12,704 bases of DNA from a virus. The DNA lies in the UHGV virus genome UHGV-0239954; one strand, 5' to 3'. The notes below the pieces were generated by a model. The model was not told the DNA's origin, made no database searches, and saw nothing but the letters and a program-made list of their open reading frames with translations. Every line of letters starts with the position of its first letter. The stretch's first letter is position 1. Shown here in pieces: positions 1 to 12,704 of the stretch. The position numbers were made by a program, and so were the translations under genes.

Positions 1-1364
1 TCTTCCTTTCTTGATTCTTTATAAACAATTGCTGCTGATTTTGCATACCATGAGTCAAAAAACCATTCTGCTTCTGTTGATGGAATGAAGCTCTTTTCTC
101 TTTTTGCATGCGAATTTTGATCGGTATCGGTTTTAATATCATTGAACCAAAAATTTGCCGACTGATAATTATCCTTCTCGTATCTTTTTATACCATACGG
201 ACCTGCTAGTTTTTTAACTATTTTTAGAACTTGCTCTTTTCTTCTGGTGTTTATCTTTGAAAGATTTGTAGGATAAATAACATTAAGTAAAGCCGCATCG
301 GCTTCTCTGTAATGTTTATCTTTTTCCAGATAACCTGGGGATTCTCCCCCTAAATCAAGCTGTAACGTTATTCTTTCATAACCTTTATCTATGAGGTGGT
401 TCAACCTCGTTGTTGAAAGAGTTTCATCCAGTTCATTGACTTTAGCTTCGCGTAGTAAATCAGAGACAAAAACAGAGTCTTTCTTCGAGAGTAGGTTTGA
501 CAAACGTTCCAGTCCAGAGGTCACCAGTGCAACGGAAGATGTGTTTAATCGGGCATCTTCTTCCCATGCTCCGGAATCTTCCATAACATAGAAATTGGCT
601 TTATCCAGATAAGCAATCAGCAGCGCAACCGACTTTAATCGGTCACCTTTTTGCCAATCTTCAGCGTTAATAGTACCAGTGTTGATTGCTTGTATAAGGA
701 GATCAAGGTAAAGACCTAACGCATCATTTTGTTTATGGTTCCACAGCTGCGGCTTGCCTTCTTCCTGCACATCTGCCATCACGGGGGAGTTGCTGTCAAA
801 TCGGATATGCACAGCATTCATTTGCACGGGAACTCCATCCAGTCGTTTTGGGTTGCTAATGACGTCCTGCATCCGCTTAATCTGGTCGGGCGTAGACATA
901 TAATCCCACAGGGTGAGCAGAACCTTTTTTGCGGCTACACTATTTCCCTGATCTGATACTAATGCCATATAGCCCCATAAACTATCCCTCAACCAGACAG
1001 CATCATAGTGGGTTTGTGCCGCTGTTTTGTCATCTTCGAAAGTAGAAGCAAGAATAAACGTTCCCCAGGGTTTCTCCGTCAACGTTAACTTTCGTGTGTT
1101 TTCTGTTAATGTTAGCAATCCTTGAATTTCGTCTTTGGTATAGTGGCTCTTTATTTCATTTTGTAATTTGGCTGAGTGAATCAAAAGACGATAATTAGGA
1201 TACTTATCTGGATTTAACGATAAATAACTTTTATCTGTTGCTGCCCCCGTGGAATTAAGAATGTTAAATACAGATTCACTCGTCACTTCTGCCCCTGTCG
1301 CCTGGCATGTGCCGCACGAAAATATACCAGCGAGCAGAAGAGTTAATGCAGATTTCCCTTTCAT
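1..1364 (-). CDS. Secreted glycoside hydrolase family 15-like protein (glucoamylase/trehalase-like); 3' end truncated by window edge
   Basis: Uninterrupted minus-strand frame from ATG at 1364-1362 to position 1, translated by hand with no stop; absent from the ORF track because it has no stop in the window. N-terminus MKGKSALTLLLAGIFSCGTCQA resembles a signal or lipoprotein peptide. Motifs HYDAVWLRDS and DSGAWEED resemble the GH15 W-x-RDS and catalytic WEE motifs. Region is visibly AT-rich compared with the element to its right. An in-frame alternative ATG lies at 1376. Confidence 0.55.
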   Translation of the reverse strand, partial: MKGKSALTLLLAGIFSCGTCQATGAEVTSESVFNILNSTGAATDKSYLSLNPDKYPNYRLLIHSAKLQNEIKSHYTKDEIQGLLTLTENTRKLTLTEKPWGTFILASTFEDDKTAAQTHYDAVWLRDSLWGYMALVSDQGNSVAAKKVLLTLWDYMSTPDQIKRMQDVISNPKRLDGVPVQMNAVHIRFDSNSPVMADVQEEGKPQLWNHKQNDALGLYLDLLIQAINTGTINAEDWQKGDRLKSVALLIAYLDKANFYVMEDSGAWEEDARLNTSSVALVTSGLERLSNLLSKKDSVFVSDLLREAKVNELDETLSTTRLNHLIDKGYERITLQLDLGGESPGYLEKDKHYREADAALLNVIYPTNLSKINTRRKEQVLKIVKKLAGPYGIKRYEKDNYQSANFWFNDIKTDTDQNSHAKREKSFIPSTEAEWFFDSWYAKSAAIVYKESRKE

Positions 1365-1597
1365 AAAATATTCCATCAATCGTTTGTTAAAAGCGTAGAT
1401 AACCACTTATTTAACAACTTGAAAATAAGGTGTTTTACCTGGGTTGTTACAAAAGGATTGCATTGCGTAAACGCTTTTTATTTACAACAAAATGGGGAAG
1501 TATTACGGCGATTGCGAAAAGTCTGAAGCGATTGAATTAAGATAATATAGAAAATCAGATACAGCAAAAATGGCAGATTGATCAGGTGAAGATAAAT

Positions 1598-1625
1598 TGG
1601 AGCGGGCGAAGGGAATCGAACCCTC
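1598..1625 (-). repeat. Partial tRNA-Gly 3' end (T-arm, 3' acceptor strand, CCA) = attachment-site repeat of an integrated element; not an intact tRNA
   Basis: Minus strand reads GAGGGTTCGATTCCCTTCGCCCGCTCCA: canonical T-loop GGTTCGATTCC, 7-nt acceptor 3' strand and CCA. This matches my recollection of the enterobacterial tRNA-Gly(CCC) glyU 3' end. The complementary 5' acceptor strand (GCGGGCG) and D/anticodon arms are absent from the adjacent ~90 nt, so only a ~28-nt fragment is present. An integrase gene starts 88 nt away. Confidence 0.6.
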
Positions 1626-1713
1626 ATAGCTAACCCATTGAATTGTGAACCAAAATAAGTAATCGCGGTACTTATCCCGGTAGTTGGTAGCGGTAGATTA
1701 CAAGGTAATTACC

Positions 1714-2940
1714 ATGCCAATCAAGAAGACTTCTTATCTTTATGCAAACAAAGATGGGATATTCATCTTTCAAATCTTTATCCCGGTGTACATGCGCCAC
1801 TTATGGCACGGGCGGCGCTCACTCAAGAAATCGACAGGCACGCGGGACATCATGCAAGCTCGCATATTCCGTGACCAATACTTATTAGAGTTCCGAAAGC
1901 TCCAGCTCATGATGAAACCGGATAACCCTATAAACCGGATTCATTCTGCTATTTCAGATCTTCACTTACTGGCGGGAATATCCAGCGACATTACCGCGCC
2001 CGTAACTACTCCAGCAGAACGAGGGAAACCAGCGTCGCCAAAATTGACAGATGTCAGTAAAGAATATGCAGAGCAATACAAAGATCGGCGCTCTTATTCC
2101 ACATTGAGTAAATCCGCTCGCGCTGTATCAGCATTCACTAAATCAACTAAGCGCCCAACAATTACAATAAACGGAATCGGGCGGCGGCTCGTCTCTGACT
2201 TTCTGAAAGCGAACCAAGATAAGTTTTCCCGGCAGACGCTGCAAAACTGGTTAACTTGCTTAGGTACGCTGTACGACTTCGCCCGGCGTAAATATGACAA
2301 TATCGCCCCTGATAATCCCTTTCACGGCCACAATCTGGAAGCCCGTCAGACAAACGAAAGTTACCAGCCGTTTGAACCGCACCAGCTACAGACATTAACA
2401 AAAAAGGCAGGTGACGAAATAAGGGATGTAATAATAATCGGGCTGTATTCCGGGATGCGTCTTGATGAAATAGCCAGCATTAAACGGGATGAGGTTGTCA
2501 CCATCGACGGCGTGCGGTGTTTCTATGTCAGTAAATCAAAAACAAAGGCGGGTATAAGGCATGTCCCTGTACACTCGCTGTTATTTGACATTGTTGATAA
2601 ATACCTCGCGCAAAACAGCGGGGAGTACCTGCTCCCCCAATCCAACAAAATTAAACGCGCGGATGGTAAACGTGGGCCGTGGTATTCTCAGACATTTACC
2701 CGCTTACGTCGCCGGGTACTACCAACAGCCACAGAGCGCCAGTGTTTCCACTCCCTGCGTGGTCACTTCATCACCTGCTTAGACCGGGCAGGTGTACCAG
2801 AACAGCGCATAGGAGCTATTACCGGGCATACAGAGAAAAAGGCAAAGACGGAAGCATTTAAAACGTACAGCCAAGGGGCTGGGATGAAAGAACTATCTGA
2901 ATACGTAGAGCTGGTAAGTTATCCAGAACTTGAATCATAA
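1714..2940 (+). CDS. int: Tyrosine recombinase / phage-type integrase
   Basis: ORF 1684-2940 in the track begins with TTG; first ATG is at 1714, preceded by AAGG 8 nt upstream. The C-terminal half has tyrosine recombinase hallmarks: conserved Arg in GMRLDE, H-x-x-R in FHSLRGH, and C-terminal Tyr candidates in KTY/SEYVEL. Position beside a tRNA-derived att site fits. Confidence 0.88.
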   Translation: MPIKKTSYLYANKDGIFIFQIFIPVYMRHLWHGRRSLKKSTGTRDIMQARIFRDQYLLEFRKLQLMMKPDNPINRIHSAISDLHLLAGISSDITAPVTTPAERGKPASPKLTDVSKEYAEQYKDRRSYSTLSKSARAVSAFTKSTKRPTITINGIGRRLVSDFLKANQDKFSRQTLQNWLTCLGTLYDFARRKYDNIAPDNPFHGHNLEARQTNESYQPFEPHQLQTLTKKAGDEIRDVIIIGLYSGMRLDEIASIKRDEVVTIDGVRCFYVSKSKTKAGIRHVPVHSLLFDIVDKYLAQNSGEYLLPQSNKIKRADGKRGPWYSQTFTRLRRRVLPTATERQCFHSLRGHFITCLDRAGVPEQRIGAITGHTEKKAKTEAFKTYSQGAGMKELSEYVELVSYPELES

Positions 2941-2942
2941 TT

Positions 2943-3371
2943 TCAGGCAGGGTAAATAATCCCCAGCCCGCGATACTGGCGGCGGTATTCTCTGACCAGA
3001 GCATCCGCCGTCGCCCTCGGCAGCTTCGCCATATGCCCGGTACGATAGCCACCCTCGGCAGAATTCGCTGCACGATGTACAACAGCCCGCACGCGCCCGG
3101 TTCTGTGGTCGTGGTCGAGGGTCGTGCTGCTGAACGCAACAGCCCGCCCGGTAACGGCACACCGTCGATACTGATAATTCCACAGAAAGCAACGCACCGC
3201 AGCCACGTCAGCACGGCGCAACTCCAGTCGCCCTGAACCATTCAACAGGAGGCGATACACATCGTCGAATGCAGCAGCGTTTCTAACGCGCTCAGCCAGC
3301 GGCATATTGCCAAGGAACTCCAGATAATCCCGCATTGCTTTTCTTAAAAGTTGGTCTGTCCGTGTAACCAT
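2943..3371 (-). CDS. Recombination endonuclease VII-like nuclease with degenerate zinc-binding site
   Basis: ATG at 3371 with GGAGA 9 nt upstream. Segment CAVTGRAVAFSSTTLDHDHRTGRVRAVVHRAAN matches the EndoVII signature C-x-x-C...DHDH-x-TG-x-VRG-LLC-x-x-CN as I recall it, but three of the four zinc-ligand cysteines are replaced (T, H, A). The catalytic DHDH and Asn are retained. Its stop lies 2 nt from the integrase stop, convergent. Confidence 0.6.
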   Translation of the reverse strand: MVTRTDQLLRKAMRDYLEFLGNMPLAERVRNAAAFDDVYRLLLNGSGRLELRRADVAAVRCFLWNYQYRRCAVTGRAVAFSSTTLDHDHRTGRVRAVVHRAANSAEGGYRTGHMAKLPRATADALVREYRRQYRGLGIIYPA

Positions 3372-3643
3372 GATTCAAAGTCTCCATTGTCAGACACAGC
3401 CCGCTTGCAGGCTTCGTATTCTTCGCGCTGGCGTTGGCATACCAGAGCATAAAGCTCATCAGCCACCGCATTTACGCGCCTATCACTGATACCGTTGCGA
3501 CGCATCTGCCCCAGCAGCTTACGAAATTCAGCCTCAAGCTCAGGCTCTCCTGTATCCATTACCCACTGTTTCAAGTCAGCGAGTGCGCCAGTCATTGGCG
3601 GCGGCTCGATGTACCGCCACCTTAATTTAATCGTCAAAGCCAT
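3344..3643 (-). CDS. Hypothetical small protein (99 aa)
   Basis: ORF 3344-3649; the second ATG at 3643 has GAGGA at about 6-nt spacing, so it is the preferred start. Overlaps neighbours on both sides (operon packing). No recognisable motif. Confidence 0.5.
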   Translation of the reverse strand: MALTIKLRWRYIEPPPMTGALADLKQWVMDTGEPELEAEFRKLLGQMRRNGISDRRVNAVADELYALVCQRQREEYEACKRAVSDNGDFESWLHGQTNF

Positions 3644-4052
3644 AAGCATTCCTCTTTATATCGTTTGCTCTCGCTTCACTGGCTTGTTTAAGCGTCATTC
3701 CTTCGATAGCTATATCCAGCAGTTCCTTTTGCTTACCAGCCAATCGCAAGGCGCTGTCTCTCCAGCAAAGCAGAAAGAAGATTGTCAGCACCTGTTTACT
3801 CAATCCATCCAGAAGATCGCCAAGTCCTTGATCCAGCAGACAGGCACGCCATGCAGCAGCGTGCTGCGTCATAGCACCGACTATCGGGATAGGTGCGCCA
3901 AGCATCGTCGCAAGCTGACTCATAACACTATTAGCATCGCCCGGATGCAGCCGGGGAATAGTCATGCGGCCAGCCTGCGCCAACAGCTCGGCGTACCTCT
4001 GGCGACGTGGGTCATCACATGCCAGCGGTTTAATTGGCTTTTCATCAGCCAT
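3627..4052 (-). CDS. Hypothetical protein (141 aa)
   Basis: ATG at 4052 preceded by GGAGG 9 nt upstream; 17-nt overlap with the downstream gene. No confident family assignment. Confidence 0.55.
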   Translation of the reverse strand: MADEKPIKPLACDDPRRQRYAELLAQAGRMTIPRLHPGDANSVMSQLATMLGAPIPIVGAMTQHAAAWRACLLDQGLGDLLDGLSKQVLTIFFLLCWRDSALRLAGKQKELLDIAIEGMTLKQASEARANDIKRNAYGFDD

Positions 4053-4070
4053 ATATGGAACCTCCGAGGA

Positions 4071-4598
4071 TTAGGCAGCCTGCAACAAATCGGCTGGCGT
4101 TGAGGGATGGTATCTGGCTTTAGCTTTTAGATAGGCAGCACGCGCCGCCGCTTCGGTTGTGAACAAGCCAAGGTGATGGCGTACACCATTAACGCGAATG
4201 TAAGCCTCCCATTTACCAGAACAAGAATGACGGCTATATCCCTTCGCTTTGCGGTAGTTGTGCTGATTCTCCTGCGGTGTAACAGCGCGGAGGTTGCCCG
4301 GTCGATTATCGGCACGTACAGCGTTAATGTGGTCGATTTGCAGACCGTCAGGGATACCACCATTAGCAATGATGAAGGCCACGCGATGCGCATAAATCGA
4401 GTGCGTCCTGCCGTCGATGCGGACAGACACGCGCCGATACCCGGCGCTGTCCGTTGCGGTGTCAGCCAGTTCCCCGGCCTCAGCATAAATCCGCTTGTTG
4501 ATTCCAATTCGGTCTACTGCATGGAACAGGCGGCCAGTCTCCGCATCGTATCGAAATAAAGAGCGTAGCAGCTCAGGGGCGTAAGCATCATTAACCAT
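4071..4598 (-). CDS. HNH endonuclease with AP2 DNA-binding domain (phage homing-endonuclease-like)
   Basis: ATG at 4598 with GGAGGGG upstream. N-terminal YDAETGRLFH, HNH core IDHINAVRADNRPGNLRAVTPQENQHN and C-terminal AP2-like SGKWEAYIRVNGVRHHLGLFTTEAAARAAY match the HNH_3 + AP2 architecture common in phages. Confidence 0.85.
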   Translation of the reverse strand: MVNDAYAPELLRSLFRYDAETGRLFHAVDRIGINKRIYAEAGELADTATDSAGYRRVSVRIDGRTHSIYAHRVAFIIANGGIPDGLQIDHINAVRADNRPGNLRAVTPQENQHNYRKAKGYSRHSCSGKWEAYIRVNGVRHHLGLFTTEAAARAAYLKAKARYHPSTPADLLQAA

Positions 4599-4614
4599 GA
4601 CTCAGCCCCTCCAG

Positions 4615-5610
4615 TTACACAGCTTGTCGGAAATTGATAACGCAGTCAGGGCGGCGCAGTCCAACATTGAACAGGCGATATGAGTCCATCACCATCGTCA
4701 TTTCGCGCTCATCATCCCACTGGCGATTGATAACGCTCTGCGCTTCGACTGTCACAAGTACAGACGCAGGCCGGAACAGCGTCGCCCGCGTCAGCGCTTC
4801 CTCTGAGGTAACGTCATAATCAGCGCCCAGTTCATGCCCGGTAATAGCTTCCTGCGGGTAACTGTTCAGCTCAATGACTCGTACCCCAGCGACATAGCCA
4901 ACTCGACGCCATGCGTAATCGTTGCCACTATCCCGGCTGTAACGGACGTTCATCAGCTTCTTATGTTCCATCAGGATGCTGAACCAAGCCGGGTCGATAA
5001 GCAGTACCAGCTCGGCCACCGGAATATCTTTCTCAGTGAGAAAGCGATTAGCAGCCGCTTTTACGACGTGAGCCAATTCGTTTGCGGCGTCCTCTTCGCT
5101 CCCCGCTGTCAGGTCGAGCGATACAACGTTATCCGTTAGTGGGTTAAACGTTGGTTGCAGTGTCGGCGGCGGTACAAAGTCAGTCGCTTTGATTAGCTGG
5201 ATGGTGTGCGCTTCGTCGTAGAATTTAGCGTGAGCAGTACCCATATTGCGGCTCAGCTCTGCGCGAAAGGTGGGCGCTGTCCAGTCGTCCTGATAGTCAA
5301 TCGGAATGCGGATATAGCTCAGCGTATCCACAGAGATAATCAGCTTATCCGACTTAACAGCGGTAGGCTCCAGCGATTGCCCTGCGGTTCTGCCCTTCAC
5401 CTCCAGATCACCACTCAGGCGATCAATGCGGTATTGGTTGCTGGCTTTCAGCGGCCTGTATGTAGACAGCCCCTCTGCCAGAAATACGGATTTGGACTCT
5501 AAACGGGTCTGGACATCCCGGTCATAAGCCTCGATGTGAATATCATTGTCGGATTCCACCCCGCCATAATGTGGGCGAAACAGATCGGGACTGTACGAAG
5601 TATCAGTCAT
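4615..5610 (-). CDS. Major capsid protein-like (T7 gp10-like, HK97-fold family), 331 aa
   Basis: ORF 4615-5655; preferred start is ATG at 5610 with TAGGAG 8 nt upstream (the two upstream ATGs lack a well-spaced SD). Segments KLIISVDTLSYIRIPIDYQD, LTEKDIPVAELVLLIDPAWFSILME and RPASVLVTVEAQSVINRQWDDE align in order and spacing with T7 gp10A segments KVITIDGLLTADVLIYDIED, LTKNYVPAADRVFYCDPDSYSAILAA and HRSAVGTVKLRDLALERARRANFQ as I recall them. Length is similar to gp10A. Confidence 0.6.
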   Translation of the reverse strand: MTDTSYSPDLFRPHYGGVESDNDIHIEAYDRDVQTRLESKSVFLAEGLSTYRPLKASNQYRIDRLSGDLEVKGRTAGQSLEPTAVKSDKLIISVDTLSYIRIPIDYQDDWTAPTFRAELSRNMGTAHAKFYDEAHTIQLIKATDFVPPPTLQPTFNPLTDNVVSLDLTAGSEEDAANELAHVVKAAANRFLTEKDIPVAELVLLIDPAWFSILMEHKKLMNVRYSRDSGNDYAWRRVGYVAGVRVIELNSYPQEAITGHELGADYDVTSEEALTRATLFRPASVLVTVEAQSVINRQWDDEREMTMVMDSYRLFNVGLRRPDCVINFRQAV

Positions 5611-5669
5611 AAACAAAACTCCTACGTAGGTTGATGAAGCCCGCGCCATCGTCATGGCACAGACGTGCG

Positions 5670-5694
5670 GAATCCTCCCGCCGAGGCAGGATTC
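5670..5694 (-). promoter_or_regulatory. Stable stem-loop in the leader of the capsid gene (possible RNA processing or stabilising element)
   Basis: GAATCCTGCC...GGGAGGATTC inverted repeat (9 bp with one mismatch, 5-nt loop), about 60 nt upstream of the capsid start inside the only sizeable intergenic gap (5611-5808) of the operon. No U-tract follows, so it is not a typical intrinsic terminator. Confidence 0.35.
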
Positions 5695-5808
5695 AGAACG
5701 GTATCGATTAAAGGGATGAGGTGCCCCGAAATGGGCGTTTTGAGGCCAGAGCTGGCGCGGTTCTCAGAGGTTAGTGCGCGTGAAGTAAGGCGAACGTATT
5801 ACCTTGCA

Positions 5809-6222
5809 TTAGTGCGCACTCATACGCGCCATGTTCAACACCTTCCGCACAGAGGTTTCAGACACGCCAACCTTACTTGCAATGTAACGATTCTTCTGGC
5901 CTTTTGCAGAGCGCTCGATAATGTCAGCGCGTACTGCCTCAGTGATCACCTTGCGGGGTCTGGCTCGATTCTTCTCGTGCCGTTCACGTTCGCGCATCCG
6001 CTCGGCCATCTTCGGCGGCAGCACAGGGGAAAGCCCACGGCTAACGCCAGAGGTGCGGGTGTCGGACGTGGCAGCTCGGGCAACGATATAAACCACTTCG
6101 TCTGGATTGAAAACGTGCTGCACACGCTCAGGGTAAATGTGGTCGCATCTACCCAGCGGCAAGGCGAAATCCGGGCGCACGTCAGCGACACGCTCCACGG
6201 CATGGAAATTACAGGTACTCAT
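5809..6222 (-). CDS. Small DNA-binding protein with C-terminal Hin/resolvase-type HTH; possible small-terminase-like or regulatory protein
   Basis: ATG at 6222 with GAGG 6 nt upstream. C-terminus RARPRKVITEAVRADIIERSAKGQKNRYIASKVGVSETSVRKVL fits the GRPRK...IA...GVS..TV.R.L pattern of Hin/resolvase HTH domains. No resolvase catalytic domain is present. Confidence 0.6.
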   Translation of the reverse strand: MSTCNFHAVERVADVRPDFALPLGRCDHIYPERVQHVFNPDEVVYIVARAATSDTRTSGVSRGLSPVLPPKMAERMRERERHEKNRARPRKVITEAVRADIIERSAKGQKNRYIASKVGVSETSVRKVLNMARMSAH

Positions 6223-6361
6223 TAGGAACCTCGGTTAATTAAAAACAGGCTTTTAGATGCCGCGCAGAATGCAGCTTGCGGGGACTCATGCGCTTAGATT
6301 GGTGTGGTAGTACCGGGTTGGAGCGCACTCAGTCTTGCAGGGCGCATTCCACCGTTGGGCG

Positions 6362-7048
6362 TTAGCGACCAGCACGTTTGCCAGCGGAGCGCTGCGCAAC
6401 CAGAGCGCGGTATTGAATGTCGTACTGGCGATGGCCGGGGCCATACCCTGATTGCTGCGCCCACTGCGAAAGCTGATCATACGCTGCAATAAACTCAGCA
6501 TGAGACATACCAACAGGTTGCGAGGCAGGCTGGCCGTATGGGTTCCCCTGTGATGGGACATAACCAGTCGCAGTGCCTGCGGCCATACGCTCTTGCAGAT
6601 AATGAACCGCCCGCTGCATCTGCGCAGGGTCGCCAGACATAACCATCCGTTCAAGGGTTGATTGCGTCCCGGCGTCGAGCGTGCCAGCGTACTGCAACAT
6701 CGCGTCAACTGTACCCTGCCCTAGCTGGCTTTCGACAGACTGGTGAAACTGCCCCATCAGCCCATGAAGTTCAGGAGTCAACTCAACAGTAGTGCCATCC
6801 TGTAATTGCAGTGTGTCGCCCACTTGTGCAGCAACATCAATCTGCTGGTCTTGCTGGTTGGCAAAGTTACTTTCGCTCCAGCTTTGATTAATGTTCGCTG
6901 GCTGCGTTTTCAGGAAATCAGCATCAGGTGTTGTCTGGTCGAATCGGCTAGCGCCGTTGTCAGCACCTACAGGTGCGGCCATGTACGGCGATTGCTGCGG
7001 CGCAGTATCAGCGCCCGAAAGATATGGATTAACATTCTGGTCAGCCAT
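6362..7048 (-). CDS. Acidic Gln-rich low-complexity protein; candidate capsid scaffolding protein
   Basis: ATG at 7048 with AGAGG 7 nt upstream; start overlaps the upstream stop (TAATG). Composition is Q/D/E/A/G-rich with no hydrophobic core pattern, and it sits upstream of the capsid gene, analogous to T7 gp9 upstream of gp10. Function is inference only. Confidence 0.6.
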   Translation of the reverse strand: MADQNVNPYLSGADTAPQQSPYMAAPVGADNGASRFDQTTPDADFLKTQPANINQSWSESNFANQQDQQIDVAAQVGDTLQLQDGTTVELTPELHGLMGQFHQSVESQLGQGTVDAMLQYAGTLDAGTQSTLERMVMSGDPAQMQRAVHYLQERMAAGTATGYVPSQGNPYGQPASQPVGMSHAEFIAAYDQLSQWAQQSGYGPGHRQYDIQYRALVAQRSAGKRAGR

Positions 7049-7050
7049 GA

Positions 7051-7290
7051 TTATGCAACCTCTTGTGATGTAACTCGGCGATGTGCCAGTTCAAGTAAAA
7101 GCATGTGTGCGTGTACGCAGCGTGGGGGAATCATCTTCTGACCGTGGTACGCCTTGCAGAGATCTTGTCTGTCAATTTGATACACACGAGCCAGATCGAT
7201 TTGGCGTAGATTCAAGGCATCAGCAATGAATTTCAGTTGTTGCCCGCACTCCACCGCGCGGCGCGGCTCCATTAAAATGATGGTGCTCAT
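7051..7290 (-). CDS. Small HTH DNA-binding protein (Cro/XRE-like), 79 aa
   Basis: ORF 7051-7332; preferred start is ATG at 7290 with GAGGA 8 nt upstream. Segment QQLKFIADALNLRQIDLARVYQIDRQDLCKAYHG has helix-turn-helix character. Confidence 0.55.
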   Translation of the reverse strand: MSTIILMEPRRAVECGQQLKFIADALNLRQIDLARVYQIDRQDLCKAYHGQKMIPPRCVHAHMLLLELAHRRVTSQEVA

Positions 7291-7304
7291 GAAATAATCC
7301 TCAG

Positions 7305-7538
7305 TTAGATAAGGCCATGACGACGCAACCAACGTCGCTCGCCAACGGAGCCACGCGGTCGCTGCCTTGGGTTCTGGTTTGGTGCTTGGCCGGGATCAGT
7401 TCGTCCTTCCCCGGACAGGTTCTGTGTCAGCACATCCCAGCCGCGTGATTCAAACGGGGCGTATCCCTCGCGCTGTTCGTCAAGGTTCACATAGAGATCA
7501 GGGTTAACGGCAGGGTGCAGCGGTTCGTTCTCTGCCAT
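7305..7538 (-). CDS. Hypothetical small protein (77 aa)
   Basis: ATG at 7538 overlaps the upstream stop (TGATG); the track start at 7541 is a GTG. Pro/Gly/Arg-rich, no recognisable motif. Confidence 0.4.
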   Translation of the reverse strand: MAENEPLHPAVNPDLYVNLDEQREGYAPFESRGWDVLTQNLSGEGRTDPGQAPNQNPRQRPRGSVGERRWLRRHGLI

Positions 7539-8098
7539 CACTTAGCCCCGAATCGCGTGTTAACATCTTCCAAAATATCGGGGTAGCTCCAGCGGTTACG
7601 CATCAGGCGCAGGACATGAGCAACAGCCTCAACAGAGATCCCAAGCTCTCCAGCGATCTCGGTTTGTTTCCAGCCGAAGCGCTCCAGCTTGTGCATCTGA
7701 TCGAGGTCGGCGCTCAACAGGCGGCGCATCGTCTGAGGTTTCTCAGGCTTCGCTTTAACAGCTTTCGGCATCGGGTGGGTGTGGGCGTTGCTAAAGCGGG
7801 AATGTGCGATAGCCAGCACAGTCTCAGGGCGAATCAGCATATCGCGGGCAATCATAAACTCTGTATCGCGGTGCAGCTTGCCGGGCTTATAGCGGCTGCG
7901 GATGGCGTTGTACTCCGCCAGAGTGATATCAGCATCGTCTTTCCAATTTTCGGCCAAGTCATCGACATAGACGCCACGGATTACAGCATCAATATCGGTC
8001 AGGGTATGACCTGTCTCCGCTGCAATCTCTTCATTGTTCTTTAGGTGCTTATGAGCCAGCGTGTTAATGCGCTGGATATCGGTAATGCTCAAAGTCAT
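7538..8098 (-). CDS. DNA-binding protein with C-terminal sigma-70 region 4 / LuxR-like HTH (regulator or small-terminase-like)
   Basis: ATG at 8098 in an ATGA overlap with the upstream gene. C-terminal RRLLSADLDQMHKLERFGWKQTEIAGELGISVEAVAHVLRL resembles sigma region 4 / GerE-type HTH. Confidence 0.6.
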   Translation of the reverse strand: MTLSITDIQRINTLAHKHLKNNEEIAAETGHTLTDIDAVIRGVYVDDLAENWKDDADITLAEYNAIRSRYKPGKLHRDTEFMIARDMLIRPETVLAIAHSRFSNAHTHPMPKAVKAKPEKPQTMRRLLSADLDQMHKLERFGWKQTEIAGELGISVEAVAHVLRLMRNRWSYPDILEDVNTRFGAK

Positions 8099-8271
8099 AC
8101 ATTAAACTCCGAATCAAAATTGATCTGGTCAGTAACCAGCGAATGAATCAGCGCAAGGCTGGATGCGGTATGTGTGCCCGACTTGCGGGCGTTGTCGTAC
8201 ATGAAGCGGGCTACACGTTGATATTTCTCCGGCAGCGTGGCGAACCATTGCCGGAACTGTTCGGGGGTCAT
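8095..8271 (-). CDS. Hypothetical small protein (58 aa), translationally coupled
   Basis: Not in the ORF track (under 60 aa). ATG at 8271 overlaps the stop of the upstream gene as ATGA, and its own stop overlaps the next start as ATGA. Sequence MTPEQFRQWFATLPEKYQRVARFMYDNARKSGTHTASSLALIHSLVTDQINFDSEFNV. Confidence 0.45.
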   Translation of the reverse strand: MTPEQFRQWFATLPEKYQRVARFMYDNARKSGTHTASSLALIHSLVTDQINFDSEFNV

Positions 8272-8477
8272 TGGTCGTCATCCTCCGGGAACACGTTGTT
8301 AAAGGTTGTATCAGGCGAGTCGGCGGCGTTCTGCTTGAGGAAGTTCACGCAGGATGACAACTCGGCAGCAGCCATGCGTGACTCTCCCGCCTCGTCCTCC
8401 TTAAGCCTGCGCGTCAACGCACCCAGCAGCAGGGTTTTTAGTTCCCATGCTCCGGCTTCAAATTCAGATTTCGTCAT
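8268..8477 (-). CDS. Hypothetical small acidic protein (69 aa)
   Basis: ATG at 8477 in an ATGA overlap with the upstream stop. Acidic C-terminus PEDDDQ. Confidence 0.5.
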   Translation of the reverse strand: MTKSEFEAGAWELKTLLLGALTRRLKEDEAGESRMAAAELSSCVNFLKQNAADSPDTTFNNVFPEDDDQ

Positions 8478-8905
8478 TGGTGGTTATCTCCAGTTAGTCC
8501 CATTGCACGCAAGTGTTGAATGACCTCGGCATGTACTGGTTTTGGTAAAAACAGGCGACGCTGCACGGATTGAAGTATCTCGTCGCGCGTCTTGTCGGCA
8601 GGGTGAACAGTCCCATTAAAGACCTCACGAGCCATGCGATAGGTCGGCCAAAGGCGAGCGCCATCCTCCCTGCGACGGAATCTATTCAGCACAGCGGCCA
8701 GACACTCCCACGGCTCACAGTTATTGAGCAGGCAATACCGCTGTAGCGGTGTCGTTGCCCGGCGCATGATGGCTTCACGATTAAGGGTCTGAATATGACG
8801 TTCGGCCAGTCCGTCGAATGAATAGCCGTTCAAAGCAAAGGCGAGCTGCGCATTAAGCAGGGCGTCAGAACGCCCCGCACGATGCAGTGCGGTTTCATCA
8901 GGCAT
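8474..8905 (-). CDS. Hypothetical protein (143 aa)
   Basis: ATG at 8905 with GGAG 9 nt upstream. Contains a Cys cluster CLLNNCEPWEC. No confident family. Confidence 0.55.
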   Translation of the reverse strand: MPDETALHRAGRSDALLNAQLAFALNGYSFDGLAERHIQTLNREAIMRRATTPLQRYCLLNNCEPWECLAAVLNRFRRREDGARLWPTYRMAREVFNGTVHPADKTRDEILQSVQRRLFLPKPVHAEVIQHLRAMGLTGDNHQ

Positions 8906-8948
8906 AAGGATTCTCCAGAAAGGAATTTAAACAGGCGAGCTGGTCAGC

Positions 8949-10838
8949 TCAGAGGAAGCGGGAGATGTAACCCCAATTGCAGTTTTCAGGGCGGTACAAC
9001 GCTGCCAGCTCATCAGGTACACCGGACGGCACCGGGGCAGAGTCGGCGTCATAGGTGATGGGGTCGCCATACAGAGCCAACGATGACCACAGCAGAAAAG
9101 CACGGGCAGGTTGACCGTCACGCCCGGCACGTCCGATCATCTGAACTAAATCGGGCAGGTCTTCGGGAACATAAGTGACAATTACGTTACGCACGCCAGA
9201 GATATCAGCCCCCAGCCCGAAGGCTTTAGTAGCAATCAGAACCGCGCCGGGCGTGCTGGCAAACCACGCAGCGTTAGCGTGACGCTGGTCGCGGCTCAGT
9301 CGCTCAACGTCAGAATGGTAAGGCCGGGCGCGGTCTCCCAGTTCGTTGAGATACGCATACAGCATCTTGATACTGTCCACCATCACCAGCGTCTTCTCAT
9401 CCAGCGGGAGGGCATCGACCAGACCAACGGCAGCCCGGCGCGTAGTTGCGCACTGCTGAACAGGAATAAGCTGGATGTTTTCACGGGCAGCACTGGCGCG
9501 GTAGGTGAGGAACTCGCCACGACAGCCAAGCTCTTTCATCAAGCCAGACTCATCACCTTTTCGCAGGGTCGCAGTAAACGCGCACCGCTGAGCATCCGGG
9601 AAGGCATTTTTCAGGGTGTGTTTCATTGCAGGGAAAGCGTCCCGGAACTCCCATTCATCAACGGTATGAACCTCGTCAATGATAAATCTGTCCACACCAG
9701 CGGCCATCAGCGCAGCCAGCACCTGATTGCCCGGCACCAGATGCTCAGGTGAAACTACGGCAACGTGGAAAGCGCCAGCAGCCAACCCCGCAAGCTGTTG
9801 CGCATTGCGTCGCCTCGGCAGCTTGTCGCCAAAGGCAACAGCGTGAACGCCAGTTTCTAGCAACTGCTGTAACACCTGCTGCTTGATGGTGTTTGTAGGC
9901 ACAACAATAACGGTCAGACCGTCATCAGAATCAGATTCAAATTGCAGGGCATAGGTGAATGCAGCCGTCTTTCCGTACCCGGTTGGCAGTACGGCCAATA
10001 CATCGCGGTCACGGGCAAATACGGCGGCAGCTACGTCCTGCTGGCCGGGTCTCCAGTCTCTGCCATCTAGCGGTGGTAACGGTACGAATGCCGGGCGGTC
10101 GCATTGCTCCAGCTCGCGGAACCTGTACGGCGCGGTAACCAGCGGCGGGATGGACGGCGGCAGGCCAGCACCCCCAACGTCACAATGCAGATTCAGCGTA
10201 TTGAATTTATCATCCGTGGGTTTCAGCTCACCGCACCACAACTGACGGAAAGCCGGGCAGTCACCCAGTCGCGTAAAGTCAGCATGGCGCATAGCTTCCA
10301 GCTTGCTCATGCCGCGACTGATACGACGCACGATCTTCTCATCGCAAATCAGAAACTCACGGCAGGCTTTGAGGAAGGCATTCTGCCCGGTTGTCGCTTC
10401 CGGGATGGAGTGCTCGCGCGGTTTAAGCGCAGCGTCATCAACGCGAACGCCGGGGAAATCTGGCGGCAGCGGCTCGGCGTACCGGGCAGGCTTTTTGTTT
10501 AGCCACATCTCCAGCTCAGCGCGGCGGCAGTGGATTGCATCGCCCGGCTGGATAATCTGGCGCAACCCGGCATCAGCGCGGCGGGAATGTCGCTTGCGGC
10601 CAATTCCATTCGCCTCTTTCCATTCACGGAACGACATAACTGAACCATCTGCATTGTAGAAATACTGCCCGGAAACGGTGTTAAGCGCTGCCTTCACTGG
10701 TCGCTGTTTAACAGGGCATAACTTGGAATGAGGTATAACGATCTTATCCGCAACCAGTTGCTGAGCATCCGCAGGCTCGGTGTTCAGCGGTTCGGCGTCA
10801 GCGGCCAGCGTAAGCAAGCGGTTTAAATTGGTTGGCAT
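8949..10838 (-). CDS. RecQ-family SF2 DNA helicase with ~275-aa N-terminal extension; putative replication protein of the element
   Basis: ATG at 10838 with GGAG upstream. Ordered helicase motifs match RecQ: RPGQQ...LPTGYGKTAAF (motifs 0/I), TVIVVPTNTIKQQV (Ia), FIIDEVH (II), FTATL (III), IATKAFGLGADISGVRNVIVTYVPEDLPDLVQMIGRAGRDG (V/VI). No RQC/HRDC region follows. The N-terminal part has no clear match apart from an excisionase-like AIHCRRAELEMWL segment. Confidence 0.88.
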   Translation of the reverse strand: MPTNLNRLLTLAADAEPLNTEPADAQQLVADKIVIPHSKLCPVKQRPVKAALNTVSGQYFYNADGSVMSFREWKEANGIGRKRHSRRADAGLRQIIQPGDAIHCRRAELEMWLNKKPARYAEPLPPDFPGVRVDDAALKPREHSIPEATTGQNAFLKACREFLICDEKIVRRISRGMSKLEAMRHADFTRLGDCPAFRQLWCGELKPTDDKFNTLNLHCDVGGAGLPPSIPPLVTAPYRFRELEQCDRPAFVPLPPLDGRDWRPGQQDVAAAVFARDRDVLAVLPTGYGKTAAFTYALQFESDSDDGLTVIVVPTNTIKQQVLQQLLETGVHAVAFGDKLPRRRNAQQLAGLAAGAFHVAVVSPEHLVPGNQVLAALMAAGVDRFIIDEVHTVDEWEFRDAFPAMKHTLKNAFPDAQRCAFTATLRKGDESGLMKELGCRGEFLTYRASAARENIQLIPVQQCATTRRAAVGLVDALPLDEKTLVMVDSIKMLYAYLNELGDRARPYHSDVERLSRDQRHANAAWFASTPGAVLIATKAFGLGADISGVRNVIVTYVPEDLPDLVQMIGRAGRDGQPARAFLLWSSLALYGDPITYDADSAPVPSGVPDELAALYRPENCNWGYISRFL

Positions 10839-10859
10839 GGTGCAAACTCCAGAGAAGGA

Positions 10860-11297
10860 TTAAATACTACGCGCCCAAGCTAAATCTTCGGGTGTCCGAC
10901 TTTCGATTAACGCTAACTGCCAGCGTAAGTAATCCTCATGTTCTTTGGTGTATCGGGGAATACCTATAGGATTTTTCACAGCGTCCGGGTTAGTCCTCGC
11001 GACTTCCCTGCAATCTCGGTCGAAAGCCCAGCGGGCAACTTCCACCGATTCGTAATCCGTAAATCGGTACGGCCTTGTGCGGGAACGTACACGCCAGACA
11101 ACTTGCCCTAATTCGTGGATGTATATGCCGCAAAGTTCATCCGGGCTTGGGTGATACAATGGCTCCCCATAATTCTGGCGCATGAACTTCACAAACTTTT
11201 GATTGCGGCGGGCACGCCGTGCTTTTTCGCGTCGCTCCTCGGCTTCATACTCTTTTTGAATGGCGGCACGGTCTACCGGGATAAGTGTTTTGCTCAT
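10860..11297 (-). CDS. Hypothetical protein (145 aa), first gene of the leftward operon
   Basis: ORF 10860-11474; preferred start is ATG at 11297 with GGAGA 9 nt upstream. The longer N-terminal extension would run through the iteron-like repeats. Basic N-terminal region (EERREKARRARRNQK); no family recognised. Confidence 0.55.
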   Translation of the reverse strand: MSKTLIPVDRAAIQKEYEAEERREKARRARRNQKFVKFMRQNYGEPLYHPSPDELCGIYIHELGQVVWRVRSRTRPYRFTDYESVEVARWAFDRDCREVARTNPDAVKNPIGIPRYTKEHEDYLRWQLALIESRTPEDLAWARSI

Positions 11298-11366
11298 ACA
11301 GTGATCTCCAGAAATTAATGTGAGTTTGGAACGGGGCGCAGGACGGAAGCGCCGGGAGTGTGGCAG

Positions 11367-11719
11367 TCTGTCCTCCTTAGTAGTTACCATCATTGCAATG
11401 GCGTCGGAGTTCTGTCTCTCTTTAGTAGTGATCTTCATCCAGTAATTTGGATTAAATGCAGACACGGCGGGCATTGCAGCGAGATGGAGAGTAGGCGGGC
11501 TTGCGGTTTCAGTCTGCCTTAGTACAAGTTTCTAGTGGTCGGTAGCCTTTCCCTTATTAGTAGCTCTCATTTATCCGGGGCTTGTCTTCCCACACAGTAG
11601 CCGTCTTCTAAAGCAACCACACCACAATCCACTACTGGCAAGGAGTTAGCAGACACGGTGATGTAGGCTACTCAAGTGTGGATTTGTAGGCGTTTTATAG
11701 TATCTGTCCTTCTTATTAG
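11367..11719. repeat. Iteron-like direct repeats (consensus about TCTGTCCTYCTTAGTAG), candidate origin or operator array
   Basis: Copies at 11367-11383, 11411-11428 and 11703-11719, with diverged copies at 11513-11525, 11546-11563 and 11581-11600. All are in the same orientation with irregular spacing, immediately upstream of the operon and next to an AT-rich tract (about 11725-11830). Confidence 0.5.
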
Positions 11720-11831
11720 ACACCTTTAAATTTCATTAATAAATACAGTTAGTTAAACGGTTATCTTTATTACTTATAAATTTCACAGATCAATAAATTA
11801 AAATTGATCGGAATTATCAGCTTTAATTTTC

Positions 11832-11851
11832 TTGACAGCTATTTGTATAAT
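11832..11851 (+). promoter_or_regulatory. Promoter-like hexamers TTGACA / TATAAT (non-canonical 8-bp spacing)
   Basis: TTGACA at 11832-11837 and TATAAT at 11846-11851 are perfect consensus hexamers but too close to act as one sigma70 promoter. Each could pair with a weaker partner. No plus-strand ORF follows. Confidence 0.2.
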
Positions 11852-12029
11852 GGTTTTAAGAAGTTGTATCGGAGTGAGCGACTGGCAGTGAGCGTAGCGA
11901 ACGATAAGCCAGTCGGCGAAGAACGAAGAGTATGAGATGACTTGTCATCGAATACGATGAGTGATTGAGCGGTACGAACGGAGATACGCTGTATAACAGT
12001 TAGAACAGTTAACAAGCTGATTAATGCTT

Positions 12030-12194
12030 TCAATGATTATCTGAATCAGTGTTATCAATTCCGAAATAACTCTTCCTCTCCTGTATTGATTCAATCATTT
12101 CTTTCATTTCAAGAATCACTACCAGCTCAGCTAATAACCGTCTCAGTTCAACATTTGAATCATTAGCACGACACTTATTTTCTGAGTATTCCAT
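12030..12194 (-). CDS. Hypothetical small protein (54 aa)
   Basis: Not in the ORF track (under 60 aa). ATG at 12194 preceded by GGGAG 8 nt upstream. Sequence MEYSENKCRANDSNVELRRLLAELVVILEMKEMIESIQERKSYFGIDNTDSDNH. Lies between the GC-rich structured region and the iteron region. Confidence 0.3.
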   Translation of the reverse strand: MEYSENKCRANDSNVELRRLLAELVVILEMKEMIESIQERKSYFGIDNTDSDNH

Positions 12195-12299
12195 ACGGTC
12201 AACTCCCTACGGTATAAGTCCATTCCAATCCGTTCACAGATTACATTGCTGAATGATCATCAGACAAGTGGCAGTCATCATCACCAAGTTAGAGTCGTC

Positions 12300-12600
12300 T
12301 CGCTACATATCCCCGCCGGATTGCCAGCGCGGCTAACACGGTTGTGAGGAGCGCCGAGCATCACAGCGGACGCAGGCCGATGAACGAGCCGTAGGTGAGT
12401 GAAAGCGGACTCGCGGACGCGAGAAGCGCAGCAGCAGGCGGCGACTGATAAACGAGCCAGACAGGTGAGTGCAAGCAGGCGTAAGCACTGCACCGTTGAG
12501 AGGTGTGGAGACGGCGGAACGTCTCCGCGTTAGGGAGGTGGATTTGGGGAGGATGTGCAAGGCACACCTCGCTCCACCCACGGGGTGTCGGTGGGTAGGG
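12300..12600. ncRNA. GC-rich structured non-coding region with paired direct repeats and hairpins (candidate regulatory RNA or leader)
   Basis: All three plus-strand frames contain stops; the minus-strand ORFs overlap in multiple frames and have R/S/P-rich translations. Two ~28-nt direct repeats (12369-12396 GATGAACGAGCCGTAGGTGAGTGAAAGC; 12437-12466 GATAAACGAGCCAGACAGGTGAGTGCAAGC). Perfect hairpin GGAGACG-GCGGAA-CGTCTCC at 12498-12517. Further stems at 12453-12483 and 12563-12587. Confidence 0.25.
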
Positions 12601-12704
12601 GTATAACGCTAATTGGTTAAGTGTACACATGTACGCTGAAATCATTAAAAGCCTATAGAAACAGCATGTAACCCAGCACCACGACATAACCAATTATCGT
12701 TGAA

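Follow-up and report, generated by a model that had tools for sequence, protein, structure and literature searches.

The element at the glyU locus

The window analysed here is a 12,704-nt stretch of DNA listed as virus genome UHGV-0239954. It belongs to the Escherichia coli chromosome, where it covers the end of the type III secretion island ETT2 that adjoins glyU (tRNA-Gly CCC). Most of it is occupied by an integrative mobile element with its own tyrosine integrase and att repeats at tRNA-Gly glyU. The element carries a T7-type capsid gene and only part of a phage gene set, and we read it as a probable satellite of T7-like phages. The features on which this reading turns are as follows.

1598-1625, minus strand: att core, an orphan 28-nt copy of the 3' end of tRNA-Gly(CCC) glyU; left boundary of the element
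1714-2940, plus strand: tyrosine integrase, 418 aa (PF00589, 8e-10; phrog_1, 1e-32), with an alternative TTG start at 1684
4615-5610, minus strand: major capsid protein, 331 aa (phrog_267, 7e-70); its true start is M16 of the open reading frame (ORF)
6362-7048, minus strand: short acidic scaffolding protein, 228 aa, pI 4.6 (phrog_1018, 5e-6)
8268-8477, minus strand: orf69, probably homologous to the N-terminal portion of T7-type small terminases (PF11123, 2.6e-3)
8949-10838, minus strand: superfamily 2 (SF2) helicase with a RecQ-like core, 629 aa (DEAD, 1.5e-19; Helicase_C, 5e-14)
11367-11860, minus strand: probable replication origin, five repeats (consensus CTACTAAGGAGGACAGA) and an AT-rich stretch
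12699-12704, minus strand: first bases of a ~270-nt ultra-conserved block that continues past the window (29076-29345 of locus L001, see below)

One complete genome, that of E. coli strain 5735 (NZ_CP154887; locus L001), matches the window at 99.9% and has an additional 4,454-bp element inserted at window position ~1598. A window position x corresponds to x+16,376 or x+16,377 in L001, owing to a few 1-nt indels. Positions 1598-1625 (TGGAGCGGGCGAAGGGAATCGAACCCTC) match perfectly the 3' end (36987-37014) of the tRNA gene that is intact in L001. ARAGORN and Rfam scans of the window itself returned no tRNA, and Rfam gave no match of any kind. The ygeQ flank continues directly into an intact tRNA in 5,256 of 5,426 complete E. 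coli genomes, the alignment with the window stopping at position 1628. An empty glyU site is thus the normal state, and the left junction is known exactly.

L001 contains four copies of the 3'-end sequence of the tRNA, which delimit, from left to right, the 4,454-bp element (element A), the capsid element, a second copy of element A and the intact tRNA. The complete capsid element spans 17974-32532 of L001, that is, 14,559 bp between att copies. It extends ~3.45 kb beyond the end of the window (12704), and this part contains a 207-aa serine recombinase, two small acidic ORFs and non-coding DNA. This element and its relatives described below have att duplications of 28-31 nt at glyU or leuX, and those with both att copies intact measure 14,471, 14,559, 14,951, 15,158 and ~15,160 bp.

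A block of minus-strand genes running from ~11298 to 2943, which we treat as one ~8.4-kb operon, converges on the integrase gene (a 'site-specific integrase' in RefSeq). An initial annotation, made from the window alone, had described a tRNA-Gly-derived att at 1598, an integrase and a single operon convergent with it. The 28-nt identity, the profile matches and the gene layout bear out all three. The helix-turn-helix (HTH) regulators, the HNH-AP2 nuclease and the acidic scaffold-like gene upstream of the capsid gene that it listed are likewise present, the HTH and AP2 matches being weak.

A capsid of the Autographiviridae family

The capsid protein matches four solved capsid structures in profile searches (1e-55 to 1e-79). 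Its nearest phage relatives are the capsids of Bonnellvirus (Autographiviridae) phages Lidtsur, glasur, forsur and J8-65, with 54-56% identity. They are followed by phages of Enterobacter, Kosakonia, Cronobacter and Pantoea, then by LIMEzero, while KP34-, phiKMV- and Friunavirus-type capsids are 43-45% identical. It is matched by 761 phage records, 755 of them over at least 80% of its length, and all of these are Autographiviridae-type genomes; the relatives outside the element's own family all lie in genomes of ~40-45 kb. A BLASTP comparison with T7 gp10 gave nothing significant, and a profile comparison gave a collinear alignment with 19% identity (E 3e-4). By this full-length homology the protein belongs to the Autographiviridae major capsid family, of which T7 gp10 itself is a remote member. 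The earlier description of the capsid as T7 gp10-like thus stands at the family level, with Bonnellvirus and not T7 as the close relative.

Within the main clade of the elements the capsids are at least 87% identical, and the divergent L005 lineage is 58% identical to that clade. They are separated by a gap from all phage capsids (at most 58% identity). Across Escherichia, Enterobacter, Kluyvera, Kosakonia and Trabulsiella the capsids are 92-97% identical. The dN/dS of the gene between family members is 0.06-0.17, which indicates purifying selection.

A shortened scaffold and a small-terminase-like protein

Two further proteins resemble parts of Bonnellvirus head and packaging proteins. Residues 124-228 of the scaffold align with residues 310-410 of the 411-aa Lidtsur scaffold (hhalign E 1.5e-5), and both C-termini contain the motifs SGDPxQ and QYxxxYxxLVxQR. 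The resemblance is confined to the C-terminus (~100 aa), the capsid-binding end. An AlphaFold2 (AF2) model of the scaffold has low confidence (pLDDT 53) and was used only for its secondary-structure pattern and for the annotation trend of its weak BFVD matches. It has a disordered N-terminus, a helical middle and a C-terminal helix-loop-helix, and nearly all of the best BFVD matches are podophage scaffolds.

The second protein, orf69, is 47-53% identical to residues 11-57 of the 101-aa small terminase of Lidtsur (47% over 45 aa; tblastn E 1e-3, hhalign E 1e-4). Four of five orf69 orthologues in the elements match PF11123, the T7-type DNA packaging protein family. We regard orf69 as a probable N-terminal small-terminase homologue, with moderate confidence; the gene is an addition to the initial annotation. 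When 11 protein families of the element were compared with 55 Lidtsur proteins by profile, the scaffold pair and the orf69 pair ranked first and second among the 605 comparisons. Both are shortened versions of the phage proteins.

The element has a partial virion gene set

Pfam and PHROG searches of all ORFs in the complete 14.6-kb element found no large terminase, portal, protease, connector, internal core or tail genes. T7-type heads need no protease, so the absence of that gene is expected. The large terminase, portal and tail genes are also lacking beside the element in L001. The initial annotation had noted that large terminase, portal, protease and tail genes were missing from ~11 kb of visible element. 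The same holds for the complete element of 14,559 bp, for its 3.45-kb remainder past the window and for four other complete copies, and its capsid and helicase calls survive the profile searches. The element thus has what marks a phage satellite, namely its own recombinase and att repeats together with an incomplete set of virion and packaging genes, and with this set it should be unable to form particles alone. The proposal that it is a satellite rather than an ordinary prophage is supported by the gene content of the complete element.

About nine core ORFs have neither a family assignment in Pfam or PHROG nor a fold match. They leave some room for a helper outside the Autographiviridae, or for portal and terminase functions of the element's own in small genes that escape recognition, which would make it a satellite of another kind or a defective element. 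Sizes speak against the second version: the longest stop-to-stop frames in the whole element have 636, 418 and 382 codons (helicase, integrase and capsid) and all others at most 242, and the unassigned ORFs reach at most 204 aa, whereas the Lidtsur portal has 521 aa and its large terminase 580 aa. A helper of another group would fit with a capsid that is only 51-58% identical to that of any sequenced phage, and with the lack of a DNA motif common to the element and Lidtsur. Yet the relatives of the capsid outside the family all come from 40-45-kb Autographiviridae genomes, and the scaffold and small-terminase similarities indicate the same phage group. We consider both versions improbable.

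Distribution and mosaicism of the family

The core of the element (window 2943-11474) is present once per genome in 59 of the 5,426 complete E. coli genomes. The carriers include enteropathogenic E. coli E2348/69, O127:H6 strains and ST69 strains. The core was not found on plasmids or in the phage collection. Protein searches and a scan of species-representative genomes add eight other genera: Enterobacter, Cronobacter, Citrobacter, Klebsiella, Kluyvera, Kosakonia, Trabulsiella and Phytobacter. The scan, which used narrow peptide patterns, contributed four elements only. All of the family proteins are encoded on chromosomes, and their names are without exception 'hypothetical protein' or 'capsid protein'.

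The elements are inserted at glyU (L003) or at leuX (L002, L007, L009, L010, L012 and L014), and the glyU-type and leuX-type integrases are 38% identical. Nine enterobacterial genera share a set of 13-14 core genes in one order, at these two tRNA sites. The gene set and order are nearly the same in the divergent L005, whose proteins are 37-58% identical, with 41-58% for the collinear core genes. The elements are mosaic; for example, an orf69 of 100% identity can accompany a helicase of 69%. Three protein families, those of the helicase, orf143 and scaffold, are confined to the element and were not found in phages.

Cargo differs between members and, as in P4 and PICIs, includes defence genes in variable slots. 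The slot between the integrase and endonuclease VII-like genes is empty in the window, where the two stop codons are 2 nt apart, and elsewhere holds Eco47II-type or NmeDI-type type II restriction-modification systems (L007 12693-14725; L014 11528-13679). A second slot, between the recombinase and the tRNA, holds a DUF3800 protein matching the PADLOC candidate PDC-M04A (L002 19634-20404), Rap1a or other genes. Despite these differences the size stays at 14.5-15.2 kb, which is 0.34-0.36 of the 41-42.5-kb Bonnellvirus genome. The GC content of the element core is 54.9% and that of Lidtsur 54.6%. The hosts of Bonnellvirus-type phages (Escherichia, Enterobacter, Kosakonia, Cronobacter and Pantoea) overlap those of the elements.

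The low capsid dN/dS, the near-identical capsids in five genera and the mosaicism point to an element that passes from genus to genus while its size is tightly constrained. Together with the conservation of the family they also make it very improbable that the element is the decaying remnant of a temperate T7-like prophage. A tRNA integrase beside a few phage-type genes would suit such a remnant, and IMG/VR lists two copies merely as viral contigs. However, 59 E. coli genomes and eight other genera show one gene set, order and size at two sites, with a capsid dN/dS of ~0.1, and the element-specific families of the helicase, orf143 and scaffold were not found in phages. No copy retains any relic of the Autographiviridae hallmarks (RNA polymerase, DNA polymerase, portal, tail tube and other tail genes, large terminase). 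No core gene is annotated as a pseudogene in the RefSeq twin of the window copy, which is the copy that was checked.

Helicase and probable replication origin

The helicase had been assigned to the RecQ family. Its best NCBIfam matches are RecQ and recQ_fam (1e-38 to 1e-39), and they cover the core at residues 261-586 only; the N-terminal region of 260 aa lies outside it. The recQ_fam score is 131.7 bits (E 3e-38) against a cut-off of 219.8, with model positions 11-331 of 470 matched. The RecQ-like core is therefore upheld, and membership of RecQ proper is not, as the scores fall below the family cut-offs and the helicase core alone matches. We presume that it is a replication protein.

The PADLOC 'DpdF' model PDLC02858 matches the helicase end to end with 1053 bits. 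A Dpd (7-deazaguanine) defence system was considered and rejected, since no other dpd gene is present in the element: PADLOC Dpd models matched none of eleven other element proteins, and the remaining ORFs had no Dpd-type Pfam or PHROG match. PDLC02858 appears to have been built from helicases of this element family and not from true Dpd systems, and it is a possible source of misannotation.

Upstream of the helicase gene, five copies of CTACTAAGGAGGACAGA in the same orientation (11367-11383, ~11412-11428, 11509-11525, ~11547-11563 and 11703-11719) adjoin a stretch of 23% GC. Two copies occur in each of L002 and L003, and eight copies of TACTAAGGnGAGTATAAC in the divergent L005. We take the region 11367-11860 to be a probable iteron-type replication origin. 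The TACTAAGG repeats resemble the -5/+6 part of T3/T7 promoters and were also considered as such; their tandem arrangement in 5-8 copies and their absence from Lidtsur fit iterons better. The hexamer TACTAA occurs only three times in the 42-kb Lidtsur genome.

A conserved block, candidate for a structured RNA

No other part of the element is as conserved as the ~270-nt block that begins at the end of the window (L001 29076-29345). About 130 nt of it are invariant in nine elements whose genes differ by 20-30%. On the operon-sense strand it folds with z = -5.0 (none of 200 shuffles was as good), against -1.9 for the opposite strand. A consensus structure of 71 pairs has 97% of pair cells paired, versus 35-43% when the partners are shifted. 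Compensatory changes are seen at three pairs, and many of the G-U pairs do not vary. The block is confined to this element family, where it occurs in 58 genomes and is never annotated, and it has no match in Rfam. We regard it as a candidate structured RNA. The TAATACGA motifs within it were examined as T7 promoters and discarded, as their register differs from that of the T7 consensus and conservation does not extend to the second copy.

A second non-coding block, at the right end of the element (L001 32066-32343), is ~70% conserved in all main-clade elements, whatever their integrase or tRNA. It gave no RNA-structure signal and no preferred reading frame, and it may hold attP arm sites or the int promoter.

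Proposed dependence on T7-like helper phages

We propose, with a probability of roughly 0.6, that the element is a helper-dependent satellite of an undescribed family specialised on virulent podophages of the T7 supergroup (Autographiviridae). Judged by sequence similarity, Bonnellvirus-type phages are the source group or a co-evolving partner of its capsid, scaffold and small-terminase modules. T7-type procapsids need portal, scaffold, capsid protein and core proteins, and are filled by a small and large terminase pair. As the element supplies a capsid protein, a scaffold and a small-terminase-like protein, everything else must come from the helper.

Upon infection by the helper, the element would excise and replicate from its own origin with its own helicase and a borrowed polymerase and primase. 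Its capsid protein would assemble on the helper portal around the half-length scaffold, which keeps the capsid-binding C-terminus. The resulting heads would be small, probably T=4, with room for ~15 kb and not for the ~42-kb helper genome. The small-terminase-like protein might then steer the helper large terminase to satellite DNA, and the particles would be completed with helper tails. The HNH and endonuclease VII-like proteins may process satellite concatemers or attack helper DNA (compare PLE NixI), and the variable slots would carry restriction-modification and other defence cargo. The small heads are suggested by the size of the element relative to a Bonnellvirus genome. P4/P2 and SaPI1/80alpha, a Staphylococcus aureus pathogenicity island (SaPI) and its helper, have the same ratio of ~0.35, and both satellites make T=4 instead of T=7 heads. 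For the proposal in its full form, namely the first satellite family of virulent T7-supergroup podophages, a 'half-capsid-forming' one with its own capsid, a half-length scaffold, a truncated small terminase, T=4-type heads, a stolen portal and motor and a ~270-nt structured RNA, we see about an even chance.

Several results weigh against this proposal. No helper was identified, and we infer its identity as well as induction, excision and packaging. A search of public contigs for excised, circular or attP forms found none, and all of the contigs examined were integrated copies; these include a 15,229-bp Logan contig and 13-15-kb metagenome contigs that end at att or in host DNA. The T=4 head is an analogy drawn from size ratios alone. 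With capsid identities of 51-58% to any sequenced phage, the fit to a known portal is an assumption. DNA shared with Lidtsur lies only inside the capsid gene, and orf69 had no tblastn match in the whole phage collection, leaving its assignment at E 1e-3 to 1e-4. The conserved block gave chance matches only among 50,697 phage records, so there is no visible mimicry of a helper packaging site. A search for T7-type promoters in the window found none, and neither the repeats nor the intergenic regions of Lidtsur yielded a consensus for Bonnellvirus promoters.

Part of this evidence would also suit a chromosomal island that interferes with podophages and is not packaged. The capsid protein and the truncated scaffold and small terminase would then act as dominant-negative decoys, the nucleases would cut phage DNA, and the island would spread only by integrase-mediated or generalised transfer. 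Such an island would be in keeping with the missing excised or packaged copies in assemblies, the truncation of the two homologues, the type II restriction-modification systems and the PADLOC candidate carried by members, and the tandem arrangement with a PD-T7-4 anti-T7 island at the same tRNA in strain 5735. It would leave unexplained why the size is 14.5-15.2 kb regardless of cargo, why the element has origin-like repeats and a helicase of its own, why a full-length capsid gene is under strong purifying selection and why near-identical modules occur in five genera. We therefore think it unlikely as the whole account, although it is the main rival of the satellite reading. Interference and satellite transfer are not exclusive: SaPI, P4 and PLE satellites combine interference with their own transfer.

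Comparison with known phage satellites

The layout of the element had been said to differ from P4-like satellites, phage-inducible chromosomal islands (PICIs) and capsid-forming PICIs (cf-PICIs), and the comparison agrees: the defining features of each are lacking. The cf-PICI module consists of an HK97-type capsid, prohead protease, portal, head-tail connectors and terminase. The element resembles cf-PICIs in being integrative, in its size class (~10-15 kb) and in encoding its own major capsid protein, by our proposal for heads of its own instead of remodelled helper capsids. It differs in having only a capsid, a short scaffold and a small-terminase-like gene, with no portal, protease, connectors or large terminase, and in its capsid, which is of the Autographiviridae and not the HK97 type. 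A preprint describes the cf-PICIs of Enterobacteria as stealing only tails (bioRxiv 10.1101/2022.09.08.507074).

Among SaPIs, SaPI1 (helper 80alpha) has a similar size, ~15 kb against a ~43-kb helper. Its CpmB is an alternative internal scaffold with the capsid-binding C-terminus of the helper scaffold, and the SaPI small terminase redirects the helper large terminase; both parallel the scaffold C-terminus and orf69 of the element. The replication module of SaPIs and PICIs, a helicase with iterons next to an AT-rich region, is also alike. Classical PICIs have no capsid gene, use temperate siphovirus helpers and are typically arranged as int-stl/str (or alpA)-pri-rep in one direction, whereas the element has a capsid gene and an operon convergent with int. 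Pfam and PHROG searches of the element found no AlpA, Stl-like repressor or primase.

P4-like satellites share with the element an Enterobacterial host range, tRNA integration, hotspots of defence cargo and the size ratio of ~0.35, and many members of the present family lie at leuX, where P4 classically integrates. Immunity in P4 depends on a small structured RNA, to which the conserved block may be a parallel. P4 itself lacks a capsid gene and works with an external scaffold that acts on P2 capsid protein. No Sid, Psu, Delta, Epsilon or alpha primase-helicase was found in the element by Pfam or PHROGs; in place of P4 alpha there is an SF2 RecQ-like helicase.

PLEs of Vibrio cholerae encode a nuclease against the helper and an own scaffold for small heads. 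PLEs and the PICMIs of Vibrionaceae are satellites of virulent phages, which is a likeness; they are not known to encode a major capsid protein and have other hosts and helper families. No sequence relationship of the element to either was detected. PLE proteins had no PHROG or Pfam match in the element, and members of its family occur only in Enterobacteriaceae.

Bonnellvirus and related Autographiviridae (Lidtsur, glasur, J8-65 and LIMEzero) share the capsid (56% identity), the scaffold C-terminus and the small-terminase N-terminus with the element. In contrast to it, they are complete virulent phages of ~42 kb with RNA and DNA polymerase, portal, core, tail and large terminase, and have no integrase. 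The openly accessible literature that we searched contained no description of satellites of T7-like phages or Autographiviridae, or of this element. We therefore place it as a new family within a known kind, the phage satellites: SaPI-like in scaffold, small terminase and size, and cf-PICI-like in having its own capsid.

Among virulent phages the T7-like ones have been studied best, and they are central to phage therapy and biotechnology. A satellite with capsid and scaffold and no portal or motor would bridge two strategies, the remodelling of helper capsids and the tail theft of cf-PICIs. If the proposal is true, the element would be a minimal natural system for how scaffold length sets the size of T7-type heads. 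It would explain some failures of Autographiviridae host range on Escherichia, Enterobacter, Cronobacter and Klebsiella, and would be a new vehicle for restriction-modification and other defence genes between genera. Existing collections include carriers (E2348/69 and NCTC11023) as well as candidate helpers, namely the Danish 'sur' phages of Bonnellvirus, which were isolated on K-12.

Other genes and features of the window

The remaining features of the element within the window are listed below.

2943-3371, minus strand: endonuclease VII-like nuclease, last gene of the operon (PF02945, 5e-6; phrog_423, 1e-13); conserved in all lineages
3344-4052, minus strand: orf101 (3344-3649) and orf141 (3627-4052), no family assignment
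4071-4598, minus strand: HNH endonuclease (PF13392, HNH_3, 2e-17; phrog_99, 1e-50) with a weak AP2-type DNA-binding domain (AP2, 1e-3)
5672-5692, minus strand: GC-rich hairpin ATCCTGCCTCGGCGGGAGGAT, within a gap of 200 nt that precedes the capsid gene
5809-6222, minus strand: orf137, accessory gene for a weak HTH protein (HTH_23, 7e-4; phrog_836, 2e-3)
7051-7541, minus strand: orf93 and orf78, small genes conserved in all lineages, no family match
7538-8098, minus strand: orf186, conserved, with HTH motif or motifs (HTH_ParB, 7e-4; HTH_23, 9e-4); 41% identity in L005
8095-8271, minus strand: orf58, conserved small gene, no family match
8474-8905, minus strand: orf143, conserved and family-specific
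10860-11298, minus strand: variable first ORF of the operon, 145 aa (RefSeq annotation), absent from most loci
12030-12194, minus strand: orf54, small acidic ORF common to some elements, 98% identical in L012, no family match
12280-12620, no strand assigned: non-coding, GC-rich and partly conserved, containing a direct repeat of 68-70 nt (AACGAGCC..AGGTGAGTGnAAGC)

Neither orf101 nor orf141 has a match in Pfam, PHROG or PADLOC. The former is retained in all lineages, and the latter is retained in the main clade and has no match in the divergent L005. The HNH gene occurs in every lineage, with its position shifted in L005. The perfect hairpin ATCCTGCCTCGGCGGGAGGAT is also conserved in L002, L003 and L009 and could be a processing or attenuation site. 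The accessory gene orf137 is absent from L005, L007, L011 and L012. By its HTH matches, orf186 is a candidate regulator or DNA-recognition protein. The 94 homologues of orf143 are all from Enterobacteriaceae and all named 'hypothetical', and its all-helical AF2 model (pLDDT 70) had no fold match in the PDB. The variable first ORF has no full-length homologue; short partial matches occur only in L011 and L012.

The repeat region at 12280-12620 is conserved in patches in L002, L003, L007, L012 and L014. It was considered as a structured RNA, which was not convincing (z -2.0 and -1.0; no Rfam match). A repetitive, GC-rich region also lies close to the presumed end of the Lidtsur genome (L004 40831-41052), but its sequence is unrelated.

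Past the window, every element has a small serine recombinase of the resolvase/invertase type at the same position (L001 29514-30137; phrog_125, 2e-41). There are two types, 28% identical to each other, one in L001, L002 and L011 and the other in L003, L007, L009 and L012; the recombinases of L005 and L010 share ~34% identity with the L001 type. The enzyme may, for instance, resolve multimers.

The left 1.4 kb of the window (1-1370) is ygeQ and a neighbouring gene, at one end of the degenerate ETT2 island, with a low GC content of 35-46%. The gene of the ygeQ flank is annotated 'glycoside hydrolase family 15 protein' in other strains, and in NCTC11023 an IS421 is inserted in the ygeQ-side flank.

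An anti-T7 island at the same tRNA

Element A, the 4,454-bp element of strain 5735, lies outside the window at the same tRNA-Gly, on both sides of the capsid element (L001 13520-17973 and 32533-36986). It encodes a 544-aa integrase whose gene is overlapped by a DUF4145 gene matching the anti-T7 defence gene PD-T7-4 (E 2e-102). The preprint of Vassallo et al. notes only a frequent overlap of PD-T7-4 with an integrase. Two near-perfect T7/T3-type promoters in element A, TAATACGACTCACTATAGGGAAAG and TAATACGACTCACTAAAGGGAGAG, point at genes for proteins of 163 aa and 157 aa. When a T7-like phage infects, its RNA polymerase should therefore activate these two genes.

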